From assembly GCA_039935655.1 (NCBI GenBank), contig JBDTJX010000081.1:1437-65436 (forward strand): a stretch of 64,000 bases of DNA, read 5' to 3'. The number at the start of each line of letters is the position of its first letter. Position 1 is the stretch's first letter. The position numbers and the translations under genes were made by a program. The notes under the pieces were generated by a model that saw only the letters and a list, made by a program, of their open reading frames with translations, searched no databases and was not told the DNA's origin. The stretch comes from Candidatus Dormibacter sp. (GTDB taxonomy: Bacteria; Chloroflexota; Dormibacteria; Aeolococcales; Aeolococcaceae). Positions 5,687 through 40,661 of this stretch are shown piece by piece.

Positions 5687-7083
5687 GCGGACACGTCCAC
5701 TTCCTCGGCATCTGCGGATACGCGGTGAGCGGCGCCGCGCTCGTCGCCCGCGAACAGGGCTGGCGCGTGTCGGGTTCCGATGACCAGGCGTACCCCCCGA
5801 CCACCGACATCCTCACCGCCGCCGGCGTGGAGTGGGTGGACGGCAGCGACGCCGCCAACCTGGAGCGGTGGGGTGTGCCCGACCTGGTCGTGGTCGGCAA
5901 CCAGACACGCGCCACCAACCCCGAGTGGCTGGCCGCCCGCGACCGTGGCCTGCCGGTCTGCAGCGAGATCGAGTTCTACCTGCGGCTGACCGCCGACCGT
6001 CACCGCATCGCCGTGTGCGGGACCCACGGCAAGACAACGACAGCATCGCTGCTCGCCCACATGCTCGATGCCAGCGGGATGAACCCCGGCTTTCGGCTCG
6101 GCTCGACCTCCCTCGACCTCGGCGGCAGCGCCCGGCTCGGCAGCGGTCCCTTCGTGTTTGAGGGCGACGAGTACACGACCGCGCCATGGGATGCGCGCCC
6201 GAAGTTCCTCCACATCAAGCCCGCCGCCGCGTGCGTGACCCGCCTCGAGCTCGACCATCCCGACATCTACCCCACACTGACGGAGTACCGTGCCCCGTTC
6301 ATCGAGCTGGCCCGCTCGATGCCCGCCAGCGGCCTGCTCGTGCTCTGTGCTGATGACCCGGAGTGCGCGGCGCTGGCAGCGCACGCCCACTGCCGTGTGC
6401 TCACCTACGGCACCGGCGCGGACCGTGACTGGCGGGTGCAGGTCGGCGACGACCACGACCGCCGACAGCACTTCGCGGTCACGCACAAGGGTGCGTCGAC
6501 CGCGGTGGCTCTCACGTTCCCCGGCGTGCACAACGCGCTCAACGCAACCGCCGCCCTGTTGCTCGCCACCGACGCGGGCGCGCCGTGGCAGGCGATCGTC
6601 GACGCGTGCGCCACCTTCAAGGGGCCCGCCCGACGGTTCGAGGTCCGGGGCGACGTCGACGGTGTCACCGTCGTCGATGACTACGCGCACCATCCGACGG
6701 AGGTGGAGGCCACCATCGCCGCGGCACGCCTGCGCTACCCGGGACGTCGCATCGTCGCCATCCACACACCGCACACCTACTCGCGTACACGCACTCTTCT
6801 CGAGGACTACGCGCACAGCTTCACAGGCGCGGACCTGGTGATCCTCGGTCCCATCGAGGCGGCTCGCGAGCGCGGCATGGCCGCGGGGATCAGCAGCCAC
6901 GACGTCGCCGCCCGCGCCGCCGCCAGCGCGCCGACGCACGTCGTGGACTCATCGGCGGAGGCGATCGCGCTCATCGAAGGCGTGGTACGCGACGACGACG
7001 TGCTCCTGGTGCTCTCTCTCGGTGGGTTCGACAAGATCGCCGGCCGACTGGTCAGCGCGCTGGAGGCCACACGTGTCCACTGA
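5683..7083 (+). CDS. murC: UDP-N-acetylmuramate--L-alanine ligase
   Basis: HFLGICG N-terminus and Mur ligase P-loop GTHGKTTT. Confidence 0.9.
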   Translation: MSGHVHFLGICGYAVSGAALVAREQGWRVSGSDDQAYPPTTDILTAAGVEWVDGSDAANLERWGVPDLVVVGNQTRATNPEWLAARDRGLPVCSEIEFYLRLTADRHRIAVCGTHGKTTTASLLAHMLDASGMNPGFRLGSTSLDLGGSARLGSGPFVFEGDEYTTAPWDARPKFLHIKPAAACVTRLELDHPDIYPTLTEYRAPFIELARSMPASGLLVLCADDPECAALAAHAHCRVLTYGTGADRDWRVQVGDDHDRRQHFAVTHKGASTAVALTFPGVHNALNATAALLLATDAGAPWQAIVDACATFKGPARRFEVRGDVDGVTVVDDYAHHPTEVEATIAAARLRYPGRRIVAIHTPHTYSRTRTLLEDYAHSFTGADLVILGPIEAARERGMAAGISSHDVAARAAASAPTHVVDSSAEAIALIEGVVRDDDVLLVLSLGGFDKIAGRLVSALEATRVH

Positions 7084-7999
7084 GTGGCTGCAGCACTGGC
7101 CCGGCGCACGGCGCAACGAGCCGCTGGCACGTCACAGTCAATACGGCATCGGCGGCCCCGCCGACTTCTTCGTGCGCATCGACGACCTCGGCACGCTTCC
7201 CGAGCTGGTGGCGCGGTGCACGGAGACAGGCGTGCCTCTGACTGTCGTCGGGGCGGGCAGCAACGCGCTCATCCTCGACGGCGGGGTGCGCGGGCTGGCG
7301 GTGCGGGCGATGAGCAAGGAGATGACGCTCGTCGACGCCGTGGTGACGCTCGCCGCCGGCGCGATGATGCCGCGGGTGGCGCTCGACCTCGCCCGAGTCG
7401 GCGTCGCCGGCATGGAGTGGGGCATCGGCGTACCGGGCACCTGTGGGGCCTCGGTGTGGGGTAACGCGGGCGCCTTCGGCGCCGACATCGCGAGCACGCT
7501 GGTCGACTGCGAGGTGGTCGCCCCGGACGGGGCGACCAGCTGGATCGGTGCGGCTGACTGCGGGTTTGCCTACCGCGACTCGAGGTTCAAGAACGACCTG
7601 TGCGGTCATATCGTGATGCGTGGCCGCTTCACGGTCACACGCGACGAGATCACCACGGTGCGCGCTCGCACCGACGCCGTGCAGGCGGAACGCAAGCGCA
7701 CCCAACCCTACGGAGTGCGCAGTCTCGGGAGCACGTTCAAGAACCCACCGGGCGATTTCGCCGGCCGGCTCATCGAGGAGGCCGGCCTCAAGGGTCGCAC
7801 CCACGGCGGTGCCCAGATCTCGCCAAAGCACGCCAACTTCGTCCTCAACATCGAACGCGCCACCGCCGCCGACGTGCTCGCGCTCATCGACCTGGCACGC
7901 GACGAGGTGGCCTCCCGCTTCGATGTGGTCCTCGAGCGCGAGATCGTGGTGGTCGGTGAGCCTCTGCTCGCGCAGGCCGCCGCGCGGGGAGCGTCGTGA
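7073..7999 (+). CDS. murB: UDP-N-acetylenolpyruvoylglucosamine reductase
   Basis: FAD-binding MurB-like sequence (GIGGPADFF, VVGAGSN). Start taken as GTG at 7073 (an alternative in-frame ATG lies at 7022); it overlaps the murC 3' end. Confidence 0.8.
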   Translation: MSTEWLQHWPGARRNEPLARHSQYGIGGPADFFVRIDDLGTLPELVARCTETGVPLTVVGAGSNALILDGGVRGLAVRAMSKEMTLVDAVVTLAAGAMMPRVALDLARVGVAGMEWGIGVPGTCGASVWGNAGAFGADIASTLVDCEVVAPDGATSWIGAADCGFAYRDSRFKNDLCGHIVMRGRFTVTRDEITTVRARTDAVQAERKRTQPYGVRSLGSTFKNPPGDFAGRLIEEAGLKGRTHGGAQISPKHANFVLNIERATAADVLALIDLARDEVASRFDVVLEREIVVVGEPLLAQAAARGAS

Positions 8000-9189
8000 C
8001 CACGATCGCGTGCATCTTCGGCAGCCGGTCGGTCGAGCATGAGGTGTCGGTGATCACCGCGCAGCAGGCGATGGCCGCGCTGGGGCCGCATCACCGCGCG
8101 GTCCCTGCGTACATCGCCAAGGATGGTCGCTGGTACACCGGCGACGCGCTCACCGACCTGGGCCGCTTCGGGGATGTCCAGGGCCTGCTTGCCGACTGCA
8201 CGGTGGTCACGCCGGTGATCGATCCGTCGCGTCCGGGTCTGAGCCTGCTGCCGGTGAGCGCGCCCCGGCGAGGCCGTTTCGGACGGGGATCGGACGACGC
8301 GGTCGCCCTCGAGGTCGACGTCGCCATGCCGCTGGTGCACGGCAACCTCGGCGAGGACGGCACGTTGCAGGGGTTGCTCGAGATGGCCGGCGTGCCCTAC
8401 ACCGGCAGTGGCGTGGCCGCCTCGGCCACGGCGATGGACAAACGCCTCGCCAAGACGGTGCTGCGCGCCGCCGGGCTGCCCGTCCTCGACGACGTCTGCA
8501 TCGACCGCGAGCAATGGCGCGTCGACCCGGGGTCGGTGCTCGAGCGCGCTGAGTCCTTTGCGCCGTACCCGCTCTACGTCAAGCCGGTCACCCTTGGGTC
8601 GAGCATCGGCGTGGCGCGCGCCACCGACCGTACCGAGATGCAGGTGGCCATCGAGGTGGCGCTGACGTACGACCAACGCTGCATCGTCGAGGCGGCCCAG
8701 GAGGACATCGTCGAGATCAACTGCGCGGTGCTGGGCGATGACAGCGGCGCGCGTGCGTCGCTGCTCGAGCAGCCCACCAAGCGCGGACTGCTGAGCTACA
8801 ACGACAAGTACCGGTCCAAGGGCGGCAAGCCTGCGAGCGCTCCGAGCGGCATGAAGAGCGCCCAGCGACTCATTCCCGCGCCGCTCGACGCCGAGCTGGC
8901 CGCACGCATCACACAGGCTGCGCTGGATTCGTTCGCGGCTGTCGGCGCGGCGGGTGTCGCGCGCGTCGACCTCATGGTCGACCCCGCGACAGGCTCGCTG
9001 ATCGTCAACGAGATCAACCCGATCCCGGGTTCCCTCTCCTTCTACCTGTTCGAGCCGGCGGGGATATCGTTCACCGCCCTGCTCGACGAGCTGATCGAGA
9101 TCGCGCAGCGCCGCCACGCGCGACGCGCGGCGAGCACTGCGGTGTTCGAACACTGGATGCTCGGCGGCGGCCCCAAATCGTCCGCGTGA
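7996..9189 (+). CDS. ddl: D-alanine--D-alanine ligase
   Basis: GSRSVEHEVS N-terminal motif and ATP-grasp C-terminus. GTG start overlaps murB stop (GTGA). Confidence 0.9.
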   Translation: MTTIACIFGSRSVEHEVSVITAQQAMAALGPHHRAVPAYIAKDGRWYTGDALTDLGRFGDVQGLLADCTVVTPVIDPSRPGLSLLPVSAPRRGRFGRGSDDAVALEVDVAMPLVHGNLGEDGTLQGLLEMAGVPYTGSGVAASATAMDKRLAKTVLRAAGLPVLDDVCIDREQWRVDPGSVLERAESFAPYPLYVKPVTLGSSIGVARATDRTEMQVAIEVALTYDQRCIVEAAQEDIVEINCAVLGDDSGARASLLEQPTKRGLLSYNDKYRSKGGKPASAPSGMKSAQRLIPAPLDAELAARITQAALDSFAAVGAAGVARVDLMVDPATGSLIVNEINPIPGSLSFYLFEPAGISFTALLDELIEIAQRRHARRAASTAVFEHWMLGGGPKSSA

Positions 9190-9950
9190 ATGGCGACGAG
9201 CAACCACGCGCGTCCCTGGCCGAAGCCGGGACGGGGCACCCGCTCCTGCTTCTGCACGGCTGGGGCGCCACCAAGGAGTTGATGCTTCCCATCGCCACGC
9301 GGTTGACCGGATATCGCGTCATCGTCCCCGATCTCCCCGGGTTCGGTGCCACCGAACCACCACCACGCGCCTGGGGCGTCGACGAGTACAGCGCGTGGGT
9401 GGTTGCCCTGCTGGACCGACTCGGCGTCGAACGCGCCCACGTGGTCGGCCACTCCAATGGGGGGCGGATCGCCATCACGCTCGCCGCCACCCGCCCGGAG
9501 CGTGTCGCCAAGCTGGTGCTGGCCGACAGCGCGGGCATCCGCCCACGCCATGGATTGCGTTACCACTGGCGGGTGCGCACCTTCAAGCTCCTGCGAGCGG
9601 TGGCGGCCTCTTCACTGGTGCCCGCCACCATTCGCCGCGCCGCCGCCGATCGCGCCGACCGCCGTGGCAGCGCCGACTACCGGGCAGCATCGGGAACCCT
9701 ACGGGCCAGCATGGTGCGGCTGGTCAACGCCGACCTGCGCCCGCAGCTGGCCTCGCTGCAGGCGCCGACACTTCTCATCTGGGGGGATCGCGACCGGGAG
9801 ACGCCGCCGGGCGACGGGCGGACCATGGAACAACTCATCCCCGACGCAGGGCTGGTCATGTTCGAGGGCGCCGGCCATTTCGCGTATGCCGAGCAGCCGG
9901 ACCGCTTCTGCCACATCGTCGACGTGTTCCTGCGCGGCGACGCAGGGTGA
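9186..9950 (+). CDS. Alpha/beta-fold hydrolase, embedded in the dcw cluster
   Basis: HGWGAT...GHSNGG nucleophile elbow (GxSxG) with a lipase/esterase-like fold signature. GTGA overlap with ddl stop at its 5' end and with the murF start at its 3' end. Confidence 0.7.
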   Translation: MNGDEQPRASLAEAGTGHPLLLLHGWGATKELMLPIATRLTGYRVIVPDLPGFGATEPPPRAWGVDEYSAWVVALLDRLGVERAHVVGHSNGGRIAITLAATRPERVAKLVLADSAGIRPRHGLRYHWRVRTFKLLRAVAASSLVPATIRRAAADRADRRGSADYRAASGTLRASMVRLVNADLRPQLASLQAPTLLIWGDRDRETPPGDGRTMEQLIPDAGLVMFEGAGHFAYAEQPDRFCHIVDVFLRGDAG

Positions 9951-11599
9951 CGGCGGTGCTCGCGGCGCTCCTCGTCGTGCTCGGGGCCGCCGCGTGGCTC
10001 TGGCTGCTCGCGCGGATCACGCTGGTGGCCGCGCGGATGTACCAGATCGAGGAATACGAGGCGGCGCGATTGTTGGCGTGGGGTGGCAGGCGCGCGTGGC
10101 TGCTGCATCGCGCCGTGCTCGTCGCGGCCGTCGCGCCCGCCGCGGTGACCGTCGCCGCGGTGATCGACCCATCGGCAGCGCCACCGCGCCCGCTTCTTGC
10201 CGGCATGTGGCTCGCCGGCGCGCTCGCCGCGCAGCCGGCGTGGGAGTGGCTCCCACCCAAGAAAGCGCTGGTGTTCACGCCGCGGCTGCGCCGCCTGCTC
10301 GCCACCACGGCGGTGCTCGCGCTGGTCGCGGCGGCCGGCGTCTGCGTGGCCGTGCTGCTGGCGCCGGTGTGGCTCGCCGGTTTGTTCGTGGTCGCCACCG
10401 ACGCCGGGGCCACGCTGCTGAGCATGGTGCTCCTGGTTGCGGCGAACGGGATCAACCGGCCGACCGAGGCACGCGTGCGTGGCGGCTTCCTGCGCGCGGC
10501 GCGCCGGCGCATCGAGCAGGTCGACCCACTTGTCATCGCCGTCGCGGGCAGCTACGGCAAGACCTCGACCAAGCACATCCTAGCCCACTTCCTCGAGCAG
10601 TACGGACCGACACTGGCCACACCGAAGAGCTTCAACACTCTCATGGGTGTCTCACGAACCATCAATGATGTGCTCGAGGATCGGCACCGCACGTTCATCG
10701 TCGAGATGGACGCCTACGCGCCCGGCGAGATCGCGTCCATCTGCGCGCTGGTGCGGCCGCGCCATGCCCTGCTGACCTCTGTCGGCCCGCAGCACCTGGA
10801 GAGGTTCGGCACCGTCGACCGCATCGCCGACGCTCTGTACGAGACCCTGGAGGACCTGCCCACGTCGGGCTTCGCCGTCGTCTACGGGGGCGACGCGGCC
10901 ACCGCGTCGCTGGGCACACGGGCCCGCACCGTGGGCCGGGAGGTCGTCACCTACGGCATCGAGGGCGAGTCAGTCGACCTCGATGTTGTTGCCGAAGATG
11001 TCCAGATCACCGGCGCCGGGTCGCGGTTCACCTGGACCTGGCCGGCAGCCGGGCTGCGCCACGAGCTGACAGTTCCGCTCCTCGGACGTCACCAGGTGCT
11101 CAACGTCAGCGCCGCGCTCGCCGCTGTCCACAGTCTGGGGCTGCCGCTGGAGCCGGCGCTGAGCGCCGTCGTCACGCTGGCGCCCGTCGACCATCGCCTG
11201 CAGCCTGTGCCCACGGGCAACGCGATCACGGTCATCGACGACTCGTACAACGCCAACCCGGTCGGGGTGCACAACGGGCTCGAGGTTCTCGGCGAGCTGG
11301 ACGCGCGCCAGCGCATTTTGGTGACCCCGGGGCTGGTCGAGCTCGGGGCGCTGGAGGACGACGAGAACCGACGTTACGGGGAACACGCTGCGCGTGTGTG
11401 CGACCACGTCATCGTCATGGACGCGCGTCCGGCACGGGCGCTGCGCGACGGGCTTCGCGCCGGGGGAATGCCGGACGACCACGTACACGTGGTGCGCTCA
11501 CTCGCCGAGGCCACGGCCGTCATCGGCCGGATCGCGACGGCCGGTGACGCAGTGTTGTTCGCCAATGACCTGCCCGACACATATCTCGGTGCCGCCTGA
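9947..11599 (+). CDS. murF: UDP-MurNAc-tripeptide--D-Ala-D-Ala ligase (MurF-like) with an Ala/Leu-rich N-terminal extension
   Basis: Mur ligase P-loop VAGSYGKTSTK followed by Mur ligase middle and C-terminal domains. The ORF track's upstream 184 aa (9395-9946) overlap the hydrolase in another frame, so the start is taken at GTG 9947 (coupled GTGA). The true start may be further downstream. Confidence 0.7.
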   Translation: MTAVLAALLVVLGAAAWLWLLARITLVAARMYQIEEYEAARLLAWGGRRAWLLHRAVLVAAVAPAAVTVAAVIDPSAAPPRPLLAGMWLAGALAAQPAWEWLPPKKALVFTPRLRRLLATTAVLALVAAAGVCVAVLLAPVWLAGLFVVATDAGATLLSMVLLVAANGINRPTEARVRGGFLRAARRRIEQVDPLVIAVAGSYGKTSTKHILAHFLEQYGPTLATPKSFNTLMGVSRTINDVLEDRHRTFIVEMDAYAPGEIASICALVRPRHALLTSVGPQHLERFGTVDRIADALYETLEDLPTSGFAVVYGGDAATASLGTRARTVGREVVTYGIEGESVDLDVVAEDVQITGAGSRFTWTWPAAGLRHELTVPLLGRHQVLNVSAALAAVHSLGLPLEPALSAVVTLAPVDHRLQPVPTGNAITVIDDSYNANPVGVHNGLEVLGELDARQRILVTPGLVELGALEDDENRRYGEHAARVCDHVIVMDARPARALRDGLRAGGMPDDHVHVVRSLAEATAVIGRIATAGDAVLFANDLPDTYLGAA

Positions 11600-11702
11600 C
11601 CCAGGTCCGATGCGCGCAAAGCGGTTGTGATGCTCGATTCCACCCCATAATGTTGCAACCGGCGCACAGGGCCGACACGTCCTCGCTCACGTCCTCACAT
11701 CG

Positions 11703-12818
11703 ATGCCCCAGCACCTCCACGAGCGCCTCTTGCGCGCGAGCCCGCCCCTCGACGACGTCGCCGCACGCCGTGCCCAGGTCCGCGCTGTCGCCGCCGGGCT
11801 TGTCGACGGTCCGCGCATGGGCCGGCGCTTCCACGTCCCGACCGGTGTCCGTCTGGAGGCGTCGCCCCGCCGACGTCGCCATGGGCCGCGCCGCGCCCTG
11901 CCGGTGGTGCGCAGCCATGGTGGTGCTACCGTACGGCGCCTCGCGGCTGCCGGCGTCCTGGTGGTGCAGGTGGGCATCCTCGCCGCGCTGCTGCTCTCGC
12001 CGGCATTCAAGGTCCACACCGTCGAGGTCAGCGGCGACCGGCTGCTGAGCCGCGATGCCGTCCTGGCAGCGGCGCGGGTGCCGCAGTCGAGCCTGTTCAC
12101 CGTCGACGGCGATGCGATCCGCTCGCGGTTGGCCGCGCTGCCGTGGGTGCGCACGGCAACGGTGACGACACAGCTGCCGTCGACGCTGAGGATCGGGGTG
12201 ACGGAATGGCAGCCGGACGTGCTCCTCCGCCACGGAGGGGACAGCACATTCGTGGCGGCCAACGGTGCGACGCTCGCCTACACGCAGGCGACGGCCGCAG
12301 CCCGACAGGGCATCCCGCTGCTGCTCGACTATCGAGCGGGGCCGCAACAGCCGTTCGTGAACGGCCTCGCCGACCTCCTGGCTGGGGCTGCGCAGCGCTG
12401 GAAGGCGACATTCGGCTGCACCCTGGACGCCTTCGTGATCAGCGACCACAACGTCTTCTCCGCGTGGTGCGGCAGCGGCTGGCAGGCGGTGTTCGGTGCG
12501 CTTGACAGCAGCCAGGCATTGGCCGCCATCCCCGCTCAGCTCGAGGTCCTGGCGGCGCTGAAGGGGAGGATCAGCTTCGTCAAGCCCAGCTTCAACTACG
12601 TCAACCTCGAGAACATCGGCGCGCCCGCCATCGGTGGCAAGCCCGGCGTTCCGGCGTCATTGTTGAGCGACATCGCGGGGACCGCGTTGCCCAGCACGGC
12701 GCCGCCCTCAGGCCCGGCCATCGCCGCGCCCCCACCCACGGCGTCCGCCTCGCCGACGCCAAAACCGACACCGACACCGTTCGTCTTCAACCTCGCCCCG
12801 CCCTCGGCGCAGCACTGA
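11703..12818 (+). CDS. ftsQ: Cell division protein FtsQ/DivIB (POTRA domain) with a Pro/Ala-rich C-terminal tail
   Basis: Single TM segment followed by a POTRA-like segment (VHTVEVSGDRLLSRDAVLAAARV...LRIGVTEWQP). Conserved position after the mur genes. Start not certain. Confidence 0.6.
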   Translation: MPQHLHERLLRASPPLDDVAARRAQVRAVAAGLVDGPRMGRRFHVPTGVRLEASPRRRRHGPRRALPVVRSHGGATVRRLAAAGVLVVQVGILAALLLSPAFKVHTVEVSGDRLLSRDAVLAAARVPQSSLFTVDGDAIRSRLAALPWVRTATVTTQLPSTLRIGVTEWQPDVLLRHGGDSTFVAANGATLAYTQATAAARQGIPLLLDYRAGPQQPFVNGLADLLAGAAQRWKATFGCTLDAFVISDHNVFSAWCGSGWQAVFGALDSSQALAAIPAQLEVLAALKGRISFVKPSFNYVNLENIGAPAIGGKPGVPASLLSDIAGTALPSTAPPSGPAIAAPPPTASASPTPKPTPTPFVFNLAPPSAQH

Positions 12819-32586: not shown

Positions 32587-32782
32587 ACCCCGGCGGCGCC
32601 TAATCGCGGCGATTGAAACGTTTCGCCGACGCGCGGAACAGGTCTGGGCCATGGGTGTCACAGGACGGCGGCCCCTGGACAGCACCCGGTCCGGAGCCGA
32701 TTAAAGTCGGCCCCTGCCGGGAGAGCGACGGTCGGACCCATGGAGAACTGACATGGCACGGAAGCAGCACGCGCGATCCTGG

Positions 32783-33334
32783 ATGCGCGCGACGAGGCAC
32801 GCGCAGACCCAGAAGCTCGTCGTCATCGCAGCGGTCCTGGCCGCCACTGTGGGCGCCGGCACCGACGTCATGGTCGCTTCGGCCGCCGGTCAGGCGGCGT
32901 CGGTCCGGGGCGCGCAGTCCGCTACCTCGAATACGGCTGCAGCGGCTGCCGCCAGCGTCTTTGCCGCCATCAACCACAGCCGCGCCGTCGCCCACCTGCC
33001 CGCTGTGTGGTTGGGCGGGAGACTCGTCAACGACGCCCATGCGCACAACCTCGCCATGGCAGCGGCCAACCAGCTGTCACATCAGTTGCCTGGAGAGCCG
33101 TCGCTGGGCGCACGCGCCAGCCGACTGGGCGTGACGTGGTCCTGGCTGGGCGAGAACGTCGGGGAGTCGCCCTCCCTGTCCTCGGCCGGCGCTCTCTACC
33201 TGGAGGGGATGATGATGAACAGCGCAGGGCATCGAGCCAACATCCTGTCGACTCGCTTCAGCCGCGTCGGTGTCGACGTGGTCTACGACAGCGTCCATCA
33301 CACGCTCTGGCTGACCGAGGACTTCGCCAACTGA
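32783..33334 (+). CDS. Secreted/membrane-anchored CAP (SCP/PR-1, YkwD-like) domain protein, paralog 1
   Basis: N-terminal anchor (MRATRHAQTQKLVVIAAVLAA) followed by CAP signatures (GHRANIL, WLGENVGES). Start chosen by N-terminal alignment with paralog 2. Confidence 0.65.
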   Translation: MRATRHAQTQKLVVIAAVLAATVGAGTDVMVASAAGQAASVRGAQSATSNTAAAAAASVFAAINHSRAVAHLPAVWLGGRLVNDAHAHNLAMAAANQLSHQLPGEPSLGARASRLGVTWSWLGENVGESPSLSSAGALYLEGMMMNSAGHRANILSTRFSRVGVDVVYDSVHHTLWLTEDFAN

Positions 33335-33439
33335 GCCGGATCGGGGCCGCTAGGATCTCCCCCTGGCGCGTTGCAGGGGGACGGCTTGAGGCGTTGTAAG
33401 CCGCGGATGCGGCCAGCTGGCGGAGGGGCCCGGGCCCGG

Positions 33440-34153
33440 ATGCGGGCGAAGGCGCCCACTGACGCGCAGACCCTCGTCATCATCGCGATCCTCGCGAGTG
33501 TTGGGGTCGGTAGCGTCGTCACAGCCATATCGCCGCCTCCGCTCCCCGGGGCCCTGGTATCGACCATGGCCCCCGAACCGGTGGGGGCGACGTGGCGGCA
33601 CCTGCGGGTCCCGGCGCTCCCGTCGCCGTCCCTCACGGCGCCAGCGGCCGCAGCAGCGCCCCGACGCCCGGCGCCTCCCGCGCCGCCAGTCCCGCGGCGG
33701 GTCGTCGGGCCGTCACCGACCCACGCGCCGCCACCCCCGCCGCCGCCCATTGACTCGTCGTCAGCCGCCGGCGCGGTGTTTGCGGCAATCAACCAGAGCC
33801 GGGCGGCGGTCGGTCTCCCCGCTCTGCGATGGAGTGGGGGACTCAGCCGCAGCGCTCACCTGCACAACCTGGCGATGGCGGCGGCGGACCATCTGTCGCA
33901 CCAGCTGCCCGGCGAGACGTCACTCGGCACCCGTGTCAGTCAGCAGGGCGTGTCCTGGTCTTGGGTGGCGGAGAACATCGGGGAATCGCCCTCACTGTCG
34001 ATAGGGGGCACACTCGGCCTGGAGCAGCTGATGATGGGAGACGCCGGCCATCGGGACAACATCCTGGCGCCTTCCGCGTCCATCGTCGGCGTCGACGTCG
34101 TCTACGACGCCGTCCACCAGTGGCTCTGGCTCACCCAGGACTTCGCCAACTAG
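33440..34153 (+). CDS. CAP (SCP/PR-1-like) domain protein with Pro-rich linker, paralog 2
   Basis: N-terminal anchor (MRAKAPTDAQTLVIIAILAS), Pro-rich linker (PAPPAPPVPRR...PPPPPPP), CAP signatures (GHRDNIL, WVAENIGES). Same C-terminal ...TEDFAN/...TQDFAN ending as paralog 1. Confidence 0.65.
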   Translation: MRAKAPTDAQTLVIIAILASVGVGSVVTAISPPPLPGALVSTMAPEPVGATWRHLRVPALPSPSLTAPAAAAAPRRPAPPAPPVPRRVVGPSPTHAPPPPPPPIDSSSAAGAVFAAINQSRAAVGLPALRWSGGLSRSAHLHNLAMAAADHLSHQLPGETSLGTRVSQQGVSWSWVAENIGESPSLSIGGTLGLEQLMMGDAGHRDNILAPSASIVGVDVVYDAVHQWLWLTQDFAN

Positions 34154-35220: not shown

Positions 35221-35259
<39 letters not shown>

Positions 35260-35862
35260 TCTCCTGCTCAGCGTAGCCGTTTTGTATTCGGGAAGCGCGC
35301 ACCACAACAGGCAGGGGTCAGGGTCAGCGTTTTCAGGGCCTCCTGGGCGCTCTCAGTGGCACGCGTTCGGTCTATGCGGCGTGGTCGGCGCGGTTCCATG
35401 GCTTTGCCTGACGCCGGCGGGGAGCACTTGGCGCAGAGGACCCCGTCCCTGGCGCAGGTGAGCAGCGTCGCGATCCCGTCGCACCGAGGACACCGTGAGC
35501 GCCGCAGCCCGGCGGGCAGAGCCGGGACGGACGACACGCGGTGATGGCTCGCTGTACCGCGTGCCGATTCTGTCGTCCAAGCAGTCGGAAAGGCGGTGCG
35601 CTGGCCACCCGCGGACGTGACGAACGCCCCTTTTTCTTCCAGCGCAACCGCCATCCGCGATTGACATCCTGCGATGCTCAGCGCCTGGCCGCCCAGCACG
35701 CCAGCGCCGCATTTGGCTAGTGGTGGCGCACCCACTGGCTTCGGCGCCCGCAACGTGGGGGTCGGCTCTGACGCACGGATAGCAAATCTGCTAGCGTCGC
35801 GGGCCTCTCGTGGCTCGCTGCTTGGCGAGCACGACCAGGTGCTTTGATACGGGAGGAGCAGC

Positions 35863-37344
35863 GTGCGCCGGCAGACAATCCTCGCAACAGGGGCGTTCGC
35901 GATCCTCGTCGGCTTGGCCCTGCCCAGCCGGAGTGCTGTTGCGGCGAACCATCCCACCTCGGCGGCCAGCAGCTCCTTCGGAGCTCCAACGAAGTGGTCG
36001 TCGACCCCGTTCCTCGGCAGCCAGGCGACCCTAGGGGGCGACGTCAACCACGACGGCAGCGCGGACCTGGTCGCGGTGAACAACAGCAGCACCTTGGTGA
36101 TGCTGTCCAACGGTTCGTCCTTCGGAGCTCCGACGCGGTGGTCGTCGACTCCCTTCTTCGGCAACGTGGCGACCCTGCTGGCCGACGTCAACCACGACGG
36201 CAACGCGGACCTGGTCGCCGTGAATAACGACGGCACCTGGGTGATGACGTCCAACGGTTCGTCCTTCGGATCTCCGAGGGAGTGGTCGTCGAGCCCCTTC
36301 TTCGGCAGCAAGACGACCCTGCTGGGCGACGTCAACCACGACGGCAACGCGGACCTGGTCGCGGTGAACGGCGACAGCACCTGGGTGATGCTGTCCAACG
36401 GCTCGTCCTTCGGCGCGCCGACGAAGTGGTCCTCGACCCCCTTCCTCGGCAACGTGGCGACCCTGCTTGCCGACGTCAACAACGACGGCAACGCAGACCT
36501 GGTCGCCGTGAACCACGACAGCACCTGGGTGATGACGTCCAACGGTTCGTCATTCGCAGCTCCAGCGGTGTGGTCGTCCAACCCCTTCTTCGGCTCCAAG
36601 GCGACGCTGCTCGACGACGTCAATAGCGACGGCAACGCGGACCTGGTCGCCGTGAACAACGACAGCACCTGGGTGATGCTGTCCACAGGGGCAGCAGCGG
36701 CACTCGCCGTACAACAGACCGACGCGGCCGCAAACGCCAGCGCCGGCACAAGCTTCACTCTCGGTGGGATCACCGCGACAGCAGCCCACCAGTTGCTCGT
36801 TGCCGACATCATCATGAGGACGGCCGCGCCTCCCTCGACTGCGGTCGCCACCTTCACCGACAACGCGGGCAACACTTGGCACAAGGCGGTCGCGGACAAC
36901 CCCGCCGGCGTGGCGATGTCGGGGGAGATCTGGTACGCGTTCAACGCAACGGGCGGAGTCACCTCTGTCACCGCAACCACTGCGGCCAGCAGCGGAATCA
37001 TCATCCGTTTCTACGAGATCAACGGCGCGACCACGACGGATCCTCTGGACAAGGTCGTGACCGCTACCGGCGCGTCAACGGCGCCGAACAGCGGTGCGAC
37101 GGCGGCGACGTCGCAGGCGAGTGAGGTCGCCATCGGCTCCATTGGCTGGGCGACTTCGGTGACCACGATCTCCGCTCTGACGGGGGGCTTTACGACGGAC
37201 GCGACCGTCGTCAACACCTCGGCGGGCGTCGACAGCAACGAGCAGGACGGGCACCAGGTCACGAGCGCGACGGGCACGCTCGACTTCGCCGGGACCCTGA
37301 GCGCATCCCATGCATGGGTGGCGTCGATCGCCACGTTCAAGTGA
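35863..37344 (+). CDS. Secreted FG-GAP/beta-propeller repeat protein with an Ala/Thr/Ser-rich C-terminal domain of unknown function
   Basis: GTG start with a GGAGG RBS and signal peptide (MRRQTILATGAFAILVGLALPSRSAVAA). Five 48-aa repeats (FGAPTxWSSTPFxG..TLLxDVNxDGNADLVAVN...) then a ~200-aa Thr/Ala/Ser-rich segment. Confidence 0.7.
   Translation: MRRQTILATGAFAILVGLALPSRSAVAANHPTSAASSSFGAPTKWSSTPFLGSQATLGGDVNHDGSADLVAVNNSSTLVMLSNGSSFGAPTRWSSTPFFGNVATLLADVNHDGNADLVAVNNDGTWVMTSNGSSFGSPREWSSSPFFGSKTTLLGDVNHDGNADLVAVNGDSTWVMLSNGSSFGAPTKWSSTPFLGNVATLLADVNNDGNADLVAVNHDSTWVMTSNGSSFAAPAVWSSNPFFGSKATLLDDVNSDGNADLVAVNNDSTWVMLSTGAAAALAVQQTDAAANASAGTSFTLGGITATAAHQLLVADIIMRTAAPPSTAVATFTDNAGNTWHKAVADNPAGVAMSGEIWYAFNATGGVTSVTATTAASSGIIIRFYEINGATTTDPLDKVVTATGASTAPNSGATAATSQASEVAIGSIGWATSVTTISALTGGFTTDATVVNTSAGVDSNEQDGHQVTSATGTLDFAGTLSASHAWVASIATFK
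35977..36696 (+). repeat. Five tandem 144-bp near-identical coding repeats (FG-GAP units)
   Basis: Repeat units begin at 35977, 36121, 36265, 36409 and 36553 with high nucleotide identity, e.g. recurring gacgtcaaccacgacggcaacgcggacctggtcgc. Confidence 0.8.
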
Positions 37345-37346
37345 GG

Positions 37347-37369
37347 GACCGGCAACCATAAAGCCGGTC
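37347..37369 (+). terminator. Possible hairpin (7-bp stem GACCGGC/GCCGGTC, 9-nt loop) 3 nt after the FG-GAP gene stop
   Basis: Inverted repeat seen directly; no U-tract. Confidence 0.25.
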
Positions 37370-37517
37370 AGGCCATCCCGTCCCGCGTGGGCCGGGGTGG
37401 CCTGGCACCCGCCAGGTAGGCTGCGGAGCCAGCCCTACGCCCTCCCCGTCGCCGGCTTCGACCGGCGCTTCCAGACGCCACCACTCTGTACGCACGGCAC
37501 GCGATGGTGGCCTCCAG

Positions 37518-38423
37518 GTGGCGCCGGCGCGTGAGAGGGTCGACAAGTACTTGCTGGCCGGCGTCGAGGCCACACTGCGTCCGCGCACGGCAGACAGCTA
37601 CGCGCAGATCGTCCGTACACACCTGGCACCGGCCTTCGCCCGCGTGCCACTGACGCGCCTGACGCCTCAGCTCATTCAGCAGACGTACCGCGCCTGCTCA
37701 CCGCCGGACTGTCCGCGAAGACTGTCGCCCAACGTCCACGGCGTGCTGCACCTTGGCCTTCGGGCAGGTGTTCAGGTGGCGCCTCGTGCCCGCCAACATC
37801 GCGGACCTCGTGGACCTGCCACGCGTGGCAGGACGCGAGATGCACGCGCTATCACCGGAGCAGGCGCGCAAGGTGCTGGCGGTGCGGAAGGCGACCCGCT
37901 CGAACCCCTCTACCGACTCGCCATTACCGCCGGCCTGCGCCTCGGCGAGCTTTTGGCGTTGCGCTGGCCCGACGTGGACCTCGAGCAACGCACACTCAGC
38001 GTCGTCGCCACCCTAGAGCACAGCCATGGTCACGAGCCAGTCGTCGCCGCGCCGAAGACCTCCCGGTCGCGACGTCAGGTGGTACTCGGCGGCGCCATCG
38101 TCGATGCACTCCGCGCGCATCGTCAGGCGCAGCCGGGCATCGGCTTTGTGTTCACCCGCGGCGACGGTCGCCCGCTCAGTCGCTCCATCGTCGACAAGGC
38201 GTGGACCCGGCTCAACGCGCGCGCCGACGTCCCGCGGGTGCGCTTTCACGACCTCCGGCAGACGTCGGCCACCCTGCTACTCGGGCGTGGTGTGCATCCC
38301 AAGATCGTGAGCGAGATGCTCGGCCACGCAACGGTGGCAATCACGCTCGATCTCTACTCGCACGTCACGCCGACGATGCAGCGCGAGGCGGTCGTCGTGA
38401 TGGACGACCTTCTGAGCCAGTAG
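37518..38423 (+). pseudogene. Tyrosine-type phage integrase/recombinase, probably inactivated by frameshifts in the N-terminal core-binding region
   Basis: C-terminal catalytic domain is intact in frame: box I LRLGELLALRWPDVD, box II RFHDLRQTSATLLL and nucleophile LGHATVAITLDLYSHV. The expected core-binding segment (AFGQVFRWRLVPANIADLVDLPRVAGREMHALSPEQARKVLAV) is encoded in a different frame (37753-38016), and the in-frame text there is non-homologous. Confidence 0.55.
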
Positions 38424-38470: not shown

Positions 38471-38846
<376 letters not shown>

Positions 38847-39183: not shown

Positions 39184-39729
39184 ATGCCAATTTGGGCCCA
39201 GCGTGAGCGGTTCGACGCACCCCGCCAGCACGGCCTCGGTGCGGGCATGCGGCGCTGGACGATCCCCGCCATCGGTGCGCTGACGCCGATAGGCCTCATC
39301 GTCGTCAACATCGCGGCGTTCATCGTCCACAACCTGGCGCAGTTCCGCCTCGGCATCAGCGTGCTGGCGTTCGTCAGCGGGGTGCTGCTCAACGCGTGGA
39401 CGGGGCTGAACATCTACCGTGTTGCCAAGGCGCGGTTTCCTCACTTCGGAGTGCTCCACGAGAGCAACCAGGAGATCGTGCTCGTCATCGGCCTGCTGGT
39501 CGTCATCGCCATCTCGGCTGCTGAGGGCCTGTTCTGCTACAACGGCCTCAGCAACGAGAAAAACCTGCCGAACGCGGCCACCTTCTATCTTGGTGTGGTG
39601 GCTATCGCAATCCCGATCCTGCTGCAGGTGATCTTCGCCCGCCTCGGTCGCGGTGGCGCCTCCGACCGCCAGAGGGTCGACGGCTATCCCAGCCCGCCGC
39701 CGGCGCCGGACCGCTGGGAGAACCAGTGA
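39184..39729 (+). CDS. Hypothetical membrane protein (4 TM)
   Basis: Hydrophobic segments throughout; stop overlaps the start of the next gene (GTGA). Start may be the internal ATG (MRRWTIPAIG...). Confidence 0.4.
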   Translation: MPIWAQRERFDAPRQHGLGAGMRRWTIPAIGALTPIGLIVVNIAAFIVHNLAQFRLGISVLAFVSGVLLNAWTGLNIYRVAKARFPHFGVLHESNQEIVLVIGLLVVIAISAAEGLFCYNGLSNEKNLPNAATFYLGVVAIAIPILLQVIFARLGRGGASDRQRVDGYPSPPPAPDRWENQ

Positions 39730-40661
39730 TCACCGCGCAACTGCTCATCCATCACGCCCTCCTGGCGCGGGCCGGCGGCGGCTCGAGCTTCGGTGGGGGA
39801 GGCGGCGGGGGCTTCGGCGGCGGGGGCTTCGGCGGTGGCGGCTACTACGGCGGCGGCGGCTACTACGGCGGCGGCGGCGGGTTCGGATCGCTCGGGCTGC
39901 TTTCGGTGCTCTTCTTCGGCGGCGGCCCGTTCATCTTCATCTTCCTGCTGCTGATGGCGTTCAACGCGTGGCGGCGTGTGTCGGGTGGCGGGATGCGCAT
40001 CCCGGGGCCGTCGGGGTGGGCGCCGCGCTACGGCGACAGCGGGCCGATGGGCGTCCCCTCCGGCTTCGGCGTCGGCCAGCAGACCGTCGCGCCGGACACC
40101 GTGTCCGAAGGCCTGGCCGCCATCAAGGCACATGACCCGGACTTCGACGAGACGGAGTTCATCAACCAGGCACAGCGCGAGTTCTTCATCATCCAGAAGG
40201 CGTGGAGCGATTGCAAACCCGAGGAGAGCCGACGGGTGATGTCCGACACGCTGTGGGACCAGCACCGCGCCCAGATCGAACAGTACGTGGCCAAGGGCCA
40301 GCACAACGTGCTCGACAACCTCGCCCTCGCCGATGCCACCATCGTCAACGCCAGCAGCGACAGCCATCACGATCGCATCCAGCTGCGCATGCATGCCGCC
40401 TGCGCCGACTACGACGTGGACAACGCCACCAACAAGATCACGCGTGGCAACCGGACGGTCGGCGAGTGGTACGAGGACTGGCTATTCGAGCGCTCATCGT
40501 CGGCGACGACGCGTCCCGACGGCGGCACCATGGCGCAGCATTGCCCCAACTGCGGCGCCCCGTTGAGCGTCGACCTCAATGGTGTGTGCTCGTACTGCAA
40601 AGCACCGGTGATGAGCGGCGACTACGACTGGGTGCTCACCCGCATCGACCAGGTCCGGTAG
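39726..40661 (+). CDS. Tim44-like domain membrane protein with Gly-rich N-terminus and C-terminal zinc ribbon
   Basis: (GGGGFGGGG)n low-complexity region, TM segment (FIFIFLLLMAF), Tim44-like alpha+beta region (EFINQAQREFFIIQKAW...), and C-terminal CPNCGAP...CSYCKAP. Confidence 0.6.
   Translation: MITAQLLIHHALLARAGGGSSFGGGGGGGFGGGGFGGGGYYGGGGYYGGGGGFGSLGLLSVLFFGGGPFIFIFLLLMAFNAWRRVSGGGMRIPGPSGWAPRYGDSGPMGVPSGFGVGQQTVAPDTVSEGLAAIKAHDPDFDETEFINQAQREFFIIQKAWSDCKPEESRRVMSDTLWDQHRAQIEQYVAKGQHNVLDNLALADATIVNASSDSHHDRIQLRMHAACADYDVDNATNKITRGNRTVGEWYEDWLFERSSSATTRPDGGTMAQHCPNCGAPLSVDLNGVCSYCKAPVMSGDYDWVLTRIDQVR

Follow-up and report, generated by a model that had tools for sequence, protein, structure and literature searches.

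A gene in a tmRNA-targeted islet of Candidatus Dormibacter joins a predicted signal peptide and five FG-GAP units to a phage-type domain of an uncurated family

We analysed a 64,000-nucleotide stretch of contig JBDTJX010000081.1 from the soil bacterium Candidatus Dormibacter sp. (hereafter the window, in whose positions coordinates are given unless a locus is named), focusing on an open reading frame (ORF) at 35863-37344 of the forward strand. Its 493-residue product combines a predicted signal peptide, five tandem FG-GAP units and a C-terminal all-beta domain, and the gene lies between direct repeats of the 3' end of a tmRNA gene. We consider it probable, with moderate confidence, that the protein is exported and envelope-associated, carries two binding-type modules and was acquired horizontally. 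Both the FG-GAP part and the tmRNA islet belong to familiar classes and are unremarkable within them. The C-terminal domain is known to sequence space but uncurated and structurally unsolved, and it is rarely found fused to a signal peptide and a five-unit FG-GAP propeller.

Results

An intact gene with a signal-peptide-like N-terminus

The ORF is uninterrupted and begins with GTG, four nucleotides after the end of the ribosome-binding site (RBS) GGGAGGAG (35851-35858). The G+C content at third codon positions (GC3) in this frame is 0.84-1.00 across the whole gene, and the encoded protein is 100% identical to the NCBI entry 'MAG: VCBS repeat-containing protein [Candidatus Dormibacter sp.]' (MAG, metagenome-assembled genome). 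Start, RBS and high in-frame GC3 together bear out the gene as it had been called in a first-pass annotation of the sequence. An antisense ORF on the reverse strand (35268-37004, 578 aa) spans the repeat array and is itself repetitive. It was rejected as a gene on its non-coding GC3 phase, and the high GC3 of the sense frame marks it as a by-product of high GC content. The same antisense artefact is annotated as a gene in an orthologous locus (L002, 7192-7935 of that locus), a trap for gene callers.

Residues 1-27 (35863-35943, forward strand; MRRQTILATGAFAILVGLALPSRSAVA/A) look like a Sec-type signal peptide. An RR pair is followed by a 15-residue hydrophobic core, with hydropathy of 2.0-2.5 over residues 5-12, and then by the AxA site AVA/A, and the same layout is present in the orthologues P0002 and L002. 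A Tat signal was rejected because the RR pair is not conserved: the orthologues have RQK at this position. This N-terminus, combined with the Pfam matches described below, supports the earlier description of the product as a secreted FG-GAP protein.

Five diverged FG-GAP units

Residues 39-278 (35977-36696, forward strand) consist of five tandem 144-bp units of 48 aa, beginning at 35977, 36121, 36265, 36409 and 36553, all in frame and each recognized by hidden Markov model. Translation and Tandem Repeats Finder both recovered the units at the starts originally proposed, the latter as a single array (35974-36685) with a period of 144, 4.9 copies, 84% matches and no indels. The two Pfam families FG-GAP_3 (PF13517; E 1.9e-25, 89.7 bits against a cut-off of 26.9) and FG-GAP (PF01839; E 3.1e-12, 46.5 bits against a cut-off of 22.1) each matched in five stretches. 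The motif DVNxDGxAD, an integrin-type DxNxDGxxD calcium loop, occurs in all five units (residues 60, 108, 156, 204 and 252).

The repeats had been described as nearly identical at the nucleotide level, which is too strong. Pairwise identity between units is 78-90% for nucleotides and 69-90% for amino acids, synonymous divergence is 0.12-0.42, and the longest exact match between any two units is 36 nt. Units that are 10-22% diverged are too different to be confused with one another, so the array cannot be an artefact of assembly collapse. Units 2 and 4 (90%) and units 1 and 3 (87%) are close pairs, and the repeat finder also returned a 288-nt unit, which points to an old duplication of two units. 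We infer that the array arose in part by such a 288-bp duplication, now old, and that in this genome the array is no fast contingency repeat.

The stretch from the signal peptide to the C-terminal domain contains exactly five units and leaves no room for others; it thus lacks the seven blades of integrin alpha or PVL. The array opens with the strand FGAPxxW and closes after TWVMLS, an arrangement that would fit velcro closure of a five-bladed ring.

The FG-GAP module is widespread in Dormibacterota

The module is 50-60% identical to hundreds of Dormibacterota proteins. Among the 120 best relatives, five units were counted in 85, six in 33 and seven in none. The array is C-terminal in 109 of these 120; nine proteins, among them that of the window, have it at the N-terminus. 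Partner domains, counted approximately from precomputed Pfam assignments of the relatives, were PQQ-like propellers (about 28), GH18 (about 15), CAP (about 10), Peptidase_C39_2 (about 8), CHAP (about 5), M23, Phosphoesterase and Peptidase_A4 (about 3 each), GH25 (about 2) and YkuD L,D-transpeptidase (about 1). Dockerin (PF00404) matches in relatives were set aside as probably reflecting the shared calcium-loop motif. The five- or six-unit module is a stock part of exported Dormibacterota proteins, usually placed C-terminal to wall-active or secreted enzymes.

The nearest solved structure by sequence is the secreted esterase 8w20 (E 3e-9), followed by the N-acetylglucosamine (GlcNAc)-specific fungal lectin propellers AAL-2 (4tqj), 5mb4 and PVL (2bwm), with E values of 3e-8 to 3e-6. 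The wall-active and secreted enzyme partners and the similarity to GlcNAc lectins suggest an anchoring role, in which the module may act as a calcium-dependent targeting propeller for a GlcNAc-containing polymer of the envelope. A search of the literature found no paper linking Dormibacterota with FG-GAP, and we know of no cultured isolate or cell-surface study of this phylum.

Two observations concern neighbouring genes. In two orthologous loci described below (L001, 3782-5398; L006, 1717-3333), the opposite strand about 2.6 kb upstream of the orthologue encodes a Peptidase_C39_2 protein that itself bears an array of five FG-GAP units, illustrating the module as an enzyme appendage in the same genome. 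In the window, two adjacent CAP/SCP-domain genes lie to the left of the islet (32753-33334 and 33371-34153), the second with a Pro/Ala-rich linker; CAP is also a fusion partner of the same FG-GAP module in other Dormibacterota proteins.

The C-terminal domain belongs to a very large uncurated family

Residues 279-493 (36697-37341, forward strand) form an all-beta domain of 215 aa, rather than the approximately 200 aa first estimated, as delimited by profile search, domain mapping, structure prediction and structural matches. It had been said to match no recognizable family. This holds for curated resources, since the domain had no match in Pfam, NCBIfam, PHROGs or PADLOC and none among PDB sequences by phmmer or profile search. 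It does not hold in the sense of a private novelty. A word-indexed search returned only a handful of relatives, and a profile built from these and searched against 1.84 billion cluster representatives recovered 19,531 representatives at E<=1e-3, 7,212 at E<=1e-10 and 332 at E<=1e-30. The window protein aligned to profile positions 2-210 with 202 bits, among the top matches of the library-wide search. None of ten members scanned had a Pfam or NCBIfam match on the domain.

Mapping the profile onto the best matches (204 proteins) defined a discrete unit of about 215 residues that occurs in two kinds of setting. Stand-alone members are 219-263 aa long and start with MAIALVQT. Multi-copy members contain the unit two to seven times, within proteins as long as about 3,000 aa, and often end exactly in ATFK, as does the window protein. 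Secreted giant proteins of this family, which are rich in Ig-like domains, have one to seven copies. In 20 of 25 giant proteins checked, a signal peptide directly precedes the first copy, and the domain occurs together with TIG (15 copies in one protein), He_PIG, fn3 and GO-like E-set domains. The ligand-binding or adhesin role suggested earlier for this segment fits with its position behind signal peptides in giant TIG- and He_PIG-rich proteins. Many phage-type stand-alone members (for example P0183, P0261, P0203 and P0215) have short conserved tails after the ATFK motif, of two recurring types, RQAVNRASTY and LLGIGK or MGVG, which could be assembly or attachment peptides.

AlphaFold2 with an alignment of 37 sequences gave a confident beta-sandwich model, all-beta with 13 strands, with a mean predicted local distance difference test score (pLDDT) of 93.1 and a predicted template modelling score of 0.91. 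A first model from seven sequences (pLDDT 65) was poor, its Foldseek matches were meaningless, and it was discarded. With the good model, Foldseek found nothing in the PDB at E<=1e-3; the best match was the GH172 structure 8ic8 (E 2.6e-3, template modelling (TM) score 0.27). Against BFVD the same model gave 64 matches at E<=1e-3. The top matches are proteins of uncultured Caudovirales (TM 0.81-0.85, root-mean-square deviation (rmsd) 2.5-2.8 A, 23-24% identity), with the best superposition on A0A6J5RXD4 (TM 0.85, rmsd 2.8 A), and the matches include 'minor tail proteins' of Mycobacterium phages PP, Shauna1, Tonenili and DroogsArmy and of Gordonia phages.

Genomic context agrees with this assignment. 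Stand-alone members of 225-240 aa are encoded in phage structural regions: one with genes for an SU10-type portal, capsid and adaptor (L003), one with an HK97-type capsid and tail tube (L004), and three tandem paralogues together with a Mu-type portal (L005). Two IMG/VR viral contigs (L010, L011) also carry family members, and L011 has terminase and portal genes. In L003, L004, L005 and L011 the family gene is directly beside a large ORF of 567 to 1,345 aa. The three L005 paralogues (9288-11436 of that contig) are each about 237-240 aa long and are followed by a 245-aa gene and then by a 1,173-aa ORF; this tandem diversification resembles host-range cassettes. A search of the PADLOC defence models with the whole protein, the C-terminal domain and two phage members returned no match.

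Across 363 instances of the domain, the most conserved positions correspond to D332, N336, Y357, N360, E384 (92%), G387, D395 (95%), W484 and F491. Between the three orthologues, the ratio of nonsynonymous to synonymous substitution rates (dN/dS) of the domain is 0.37-0.61, a sign of purifying selection. The domain is under constraint and yet evolves fast, which is common for exposed binding domains.

We considered whether the C-terminal domain could be an enzyme, for example a glycan-cleaving depolymerase like those on phage tails, which the propeller would deliver to its substrate. The near-invariant acidic pair E384 and D395, together with the conservation of D332, N336, Y357, N360 and W484, can be read in this way, but acidic residues could equally bind metal or sugar. 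The FG-GAP module sits on hydrolases in most Dormibacterota relatives, one phage protein among the BFVD matches is annotated as a glycerophosphodiester phosphodiesterase, and the best PDB matches, the GH172 enzymes, are jelly-roll glycosidases, although that match is not significant. Set against this, the usual partners of the domain are Ig-like stalks and not substrate-binding modules, and up to seven copies occur per protein, a pattern typical of binding rather than catalytic domains. We therefore regard an enzymatic role as unlikely, if still plausible, and favour a binding role for the domain.

The gene is shared as a cassette by three Dormibacterota contexts

Among billions of proteins searched, the same full architecture was found in three lineages only. 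The orthologue P0002, encoded on L001, is 60% identical over 100% of the query. L006, in a Dormiibacterota MAG, is a near-identical copy of the L001 locus, and the two come from different samples. The orthologue on L002 is frameshifted within its array and was called as a fragment (P0041). A genome search with the single protein gave no further orthologues, one with the alignment of the three orthologues gave L006, of the same lineage as L001, and one distant match only, and a metagenome search gave distant matches only.

Nucleotide similarity to L001 by blastn is confined to window positions 35768-37415 and that to L002 to 35789-37393, with identity of about 78-79% among the three contexts over the longest alignments. 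The shared part thus extends from about 95 bp before the gene to about 70 bp after it. Since similarity is limited to gene, leader and trailer across different contexts, the gene is a discrete cassette, which either moved with different integrative elements or has survived them.

The 5' leader (35768-35862, forward strand), delimited by the blastn boundaries and the alignment with L001 and L002, contains the RBS and a block, TTGGCGAGCAC, both conserved in all three loci, as well as the palindrome TAGCAAATCTGCTA (TAGCA-N4-TGCTA). A promoter scan of the upstream region found no sigma-70-type match. The palindrome was noted before and is indeed present (35780-35793), but it is degenerate in L001 and absent from L002. 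We therefore treat it as a chance occurrence and reject it as an operator, as it is not conserved in otherwise alignable upstream regions of two orthologues. After the stop codon, two GC-rich, terminator-like hairpins without a U tract (37347-37403, forward strand; folding energy -46 kcal/mol, z -3.4) are conserved in L001 and partly in L002, and these may be a terminator type used by this high-GC lineage.

The cassette lies in a small tmRNA-targeted islet

In the window the gene is flanked by a perfect 39-bp direct repeat consisting of the last 32 nt of the tmRNA and seven more, with copies 3,250 bp apart. The distal, att-like copy (35221-35259) is a displaced tmRNA 3' end and forms the left boundary of the islet; the proximal copy (38471-38509) overlaps the 3' end of the intact tmRNA gene and forms the right. 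This gene (ssrA; 38478-38846, reverse strand; tag AKNAQPLALAA), the integration target, was identified by ARAGORN and matched Rfam RF00023 over its full length with 174 bits. The 32-nt repeat core has only two copies in the 64 kb (0 expected), with no third even when three mismatches were allowed.

Between the repeats lie some 500 bp lacking a recognizable gene, the FG-GAP gene and an integrase ORF. The first segment (35260-35767) has no clear GC3 phase and is not shared with the orthologous loci, and an ORF within it (35353-35712, reverse strand) had no Pfam match. The tyrosine integrase (37518-38423, forward strand) is an apparent pseudogene with Phage_integrase (E 7.8e-24) and SAM-like (E 5.2e-06) domains. 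Its sequence is distributed over all three frames, with at least three frame changes between about 37690 and about 37910 and two switches of GC3 phase, and no N-terminal arm-binding region is visible, so that it represents either a pseudogene or a MAG assembly error. Together these features describe a small tmRNA-targeted islet of 3.25 kb with one cargo gene, probably immobilised now. The proposal that the gene is islet cargo was thus well founded, as repeats of the tmRNA 3' end flank it together with the integrase ORF.

Two of the three contexts are small islets with broken integrases, at tmRNA in the window and at tRNA-Thr in L002. The L002 islet (6532-12104 of that locus) is bounded by a 52-bp imperfect direct repeat (6532-6583 and 12053-12104) covering the 5' half of tRNA-Thr, and carries the orthologue, an AAA_14/DUF4143 ATPase, a helix-turn-helix protein and a frameshifted integrase. 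No similarity between this integrase and the window region was detected by tblastn.

Beyond the islet, a gene at 39726-40661 encodes a Tim44-like domain protein with a C-terminal zinc ribbon and N-terminal GGGGF/GGGGYY repeats, the latter matching DNA direct repeats at 39774-39881.

Arrays at different stages of homogenisation

The orthologous arrays differ in unit number and in homogeneity. The window has five units with a mean within-array nucleotide identity of 83%, L001 has six with 75%, and L002 has six with 97% (97-99% pairwise). One L002 unit is 142 bp long, and its 2-bp deletion breaks the frame; this may be an assembly error in repeats that are about 98% identical. Units are closest to units of the same genome and not to those at the same position. 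The exception is the last unit, beside the C-terminal domain, which retains positional orthology: unit 5 of the window is 84% identical to the sixth unit (A6) of an orthologous array, compared with 78-81% to units 1-4 of its own array. These comparisons show that homogenisation and copy-number change occur in the gene family, very recently in L002 and not recently in the window. The recent expansion or homogenisation proposed earlier is therefore supported for the family, by the L002 units and by six units against five, and not for the window array itself.

The first-pass annotation further read the array as a contingency locus, in which frequent gain and loss of 144-bp units would make the protein variable in length between strains. 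Some features are compatible with this: the unit length keeps the frame, units group by genome and not by position, orthologues have six units where the window has five, and the L002 units are 97-99% identical. The window units, however, differ at 10-22% of positions with at most 36 identical bases in a row, and their synonymous divergence indicates that the last rearrangement is old. L001 and L006, the sole pair of near-identical loci, have six units each despite coming from different samples. A contingency locus in the window genome is accordingly distinctly unlikely.

Discussion

We propose that the product of this gene would first be exported through Sec. Its calcium-loaded propeller would then hold it on a GlcNAc-containing polymer of the envelope, for example peptidoglycan, and the C-terminal domain would present a second binding surface of the phage-tail type. 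The whole would be a surface-tethered binding or adhesin-like factor that was acquired horizontally.

Several points weigh against this view. The signal-peptide call has hydropathy as its sole basis. Canonical FG-GAP propellers have seven blades, and the ring proposed here would have to close with five. Wall binding by the module is suggested by fusion partners and by a lectin similarity that is weak and comes largely from the repeat consensus, and the best PDB match is the esterase 8w20, not a lectin. The dN/dS of the C-terminal domain is rather relaxed. With respect to phages, the window domain matched no PHROG family and, by tblastn, nothing in GenBank phages, where two phage-type family members also had no match; the connection to phages comes from structure and from more distant members of the family, and the label 'minor tail protein' in a phage record mostly reflects the position of the gene. 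With respect to mobility, the broken integrase makes it historical, and no integrase or tRNA was seen within 7-8 kb of the orthologue in L001 or L006.

The window protein shares a phage-type domain but is not a virion protein, since it has a signal peptide and the islet contains only this gene and an integrase remnant. A more specific idea, which we regard as a long shot, is that a phage receptor-binding-type domain was domesticated and is tethered by the FG-GAP propeller, the standard wall-targeting module of the lineage, to the cell's own envelope, where it would occupy or mask the glycan serving related phages as receptor. If so, a piece of a phage tail would have become a superinfection-exclusion or receptor-masking factor, and this role would explain the persistence of the protein on decaying integrase islets at two different RNA genes. 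The absence of a PADLOC match is neutral with respect to this idea. Least probable of all is that the gene is a remnant of a prophage in decay, once a tail gene and now without a function for the cell: the broken integrase, the roughly 500 bp of non-coding DNA, the phage-like domain and the frameshifted L002 copy can be read in that way, but a virion protein would not be expected to have a signal peptide or a host-lineage FG-GAP module, the ORF is intact, its GC3 is very high and dN/dS is below 1, gene, leader and hairpin are conserved in three contexts while the flanks are not, the islet holds no phage structural gene, and the frameshift of L002 lies within a 98%-identical repeat, a setting in which misassembly is likely.

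The gene is informative beyond its own islet. It flags a very large family, comprising thousands of clusters, for which Pfam and NCBIfam offer no model and no structure has been solved, and which links phage tail-region proteins to giant secreted proteins of bacteria. The confident model and the conserved E/D/N/Y/W signature make this family directly testable. The relatives of the FG-GAP module indicate that in Dormibacterota a five- or six-unit propeller serves as a general add-on to exported enzymes, often wall-active ones, which offers a lead into the cell-surface biology of this phylum. With within-array identities of 75%, 83% and 97%, the orthologue set shows tandem arrays of blades homogenised to three different degrees and is a small natural example of propeller growth and homogenisation.

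Comparison with known systems

Islands that are targeted to tRNA or tmRNA genes and carry tyrosine integrases are a known general class. The islet resembles these in its intact tmRNA, the exact duplication of the 3' end at the far boundary and an integrase that adjoins the tmRNA and is convergent with it. It differs in its very small size (3.25 kb), its single cargo gene and an integrase that is frameshifted and N-terminally incomplete.

The FG-GAP module resembles the fungal lectins PVL, AAL-2 and 5mb4 in its FG..P strand, its DxNxDGxxD loop, its occurrence in a secreted protein and detectable similarity, a likeness of overall sequence. Unlike PVL-type lectins and integrin alpha, which have seven blades of about 55 aa, it has five units of 48 aa, and unlike the lectins it is one member of a Dormibacterota-specific expansion appended to many enzymes. 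As a repeat module found on peptidoglycan hydrolases and other exported enzymes across one lineage, it is comparable to LysM, SH3b, SLH and choline-binding repeats. Its fold and sequence are unrelated to these, so the analogy is functional only and presupposes the wall binding that we propose for the Dormibacterota FG-GAP module.

The C-terminal domain shares with phage minor-tail-type beta-sandwich proteins the same predicted fold over the whole 216-residue domain (TM 0.6-0.85, probability 1.00). The phage members are encoded beside very large proteins and portal, capsid and terminase genes, and identity between them and the window domain is only about 15-35%. Unlike them, the domain described here lies behind a signal peptide and a propeller, in an islet without a virion gene.

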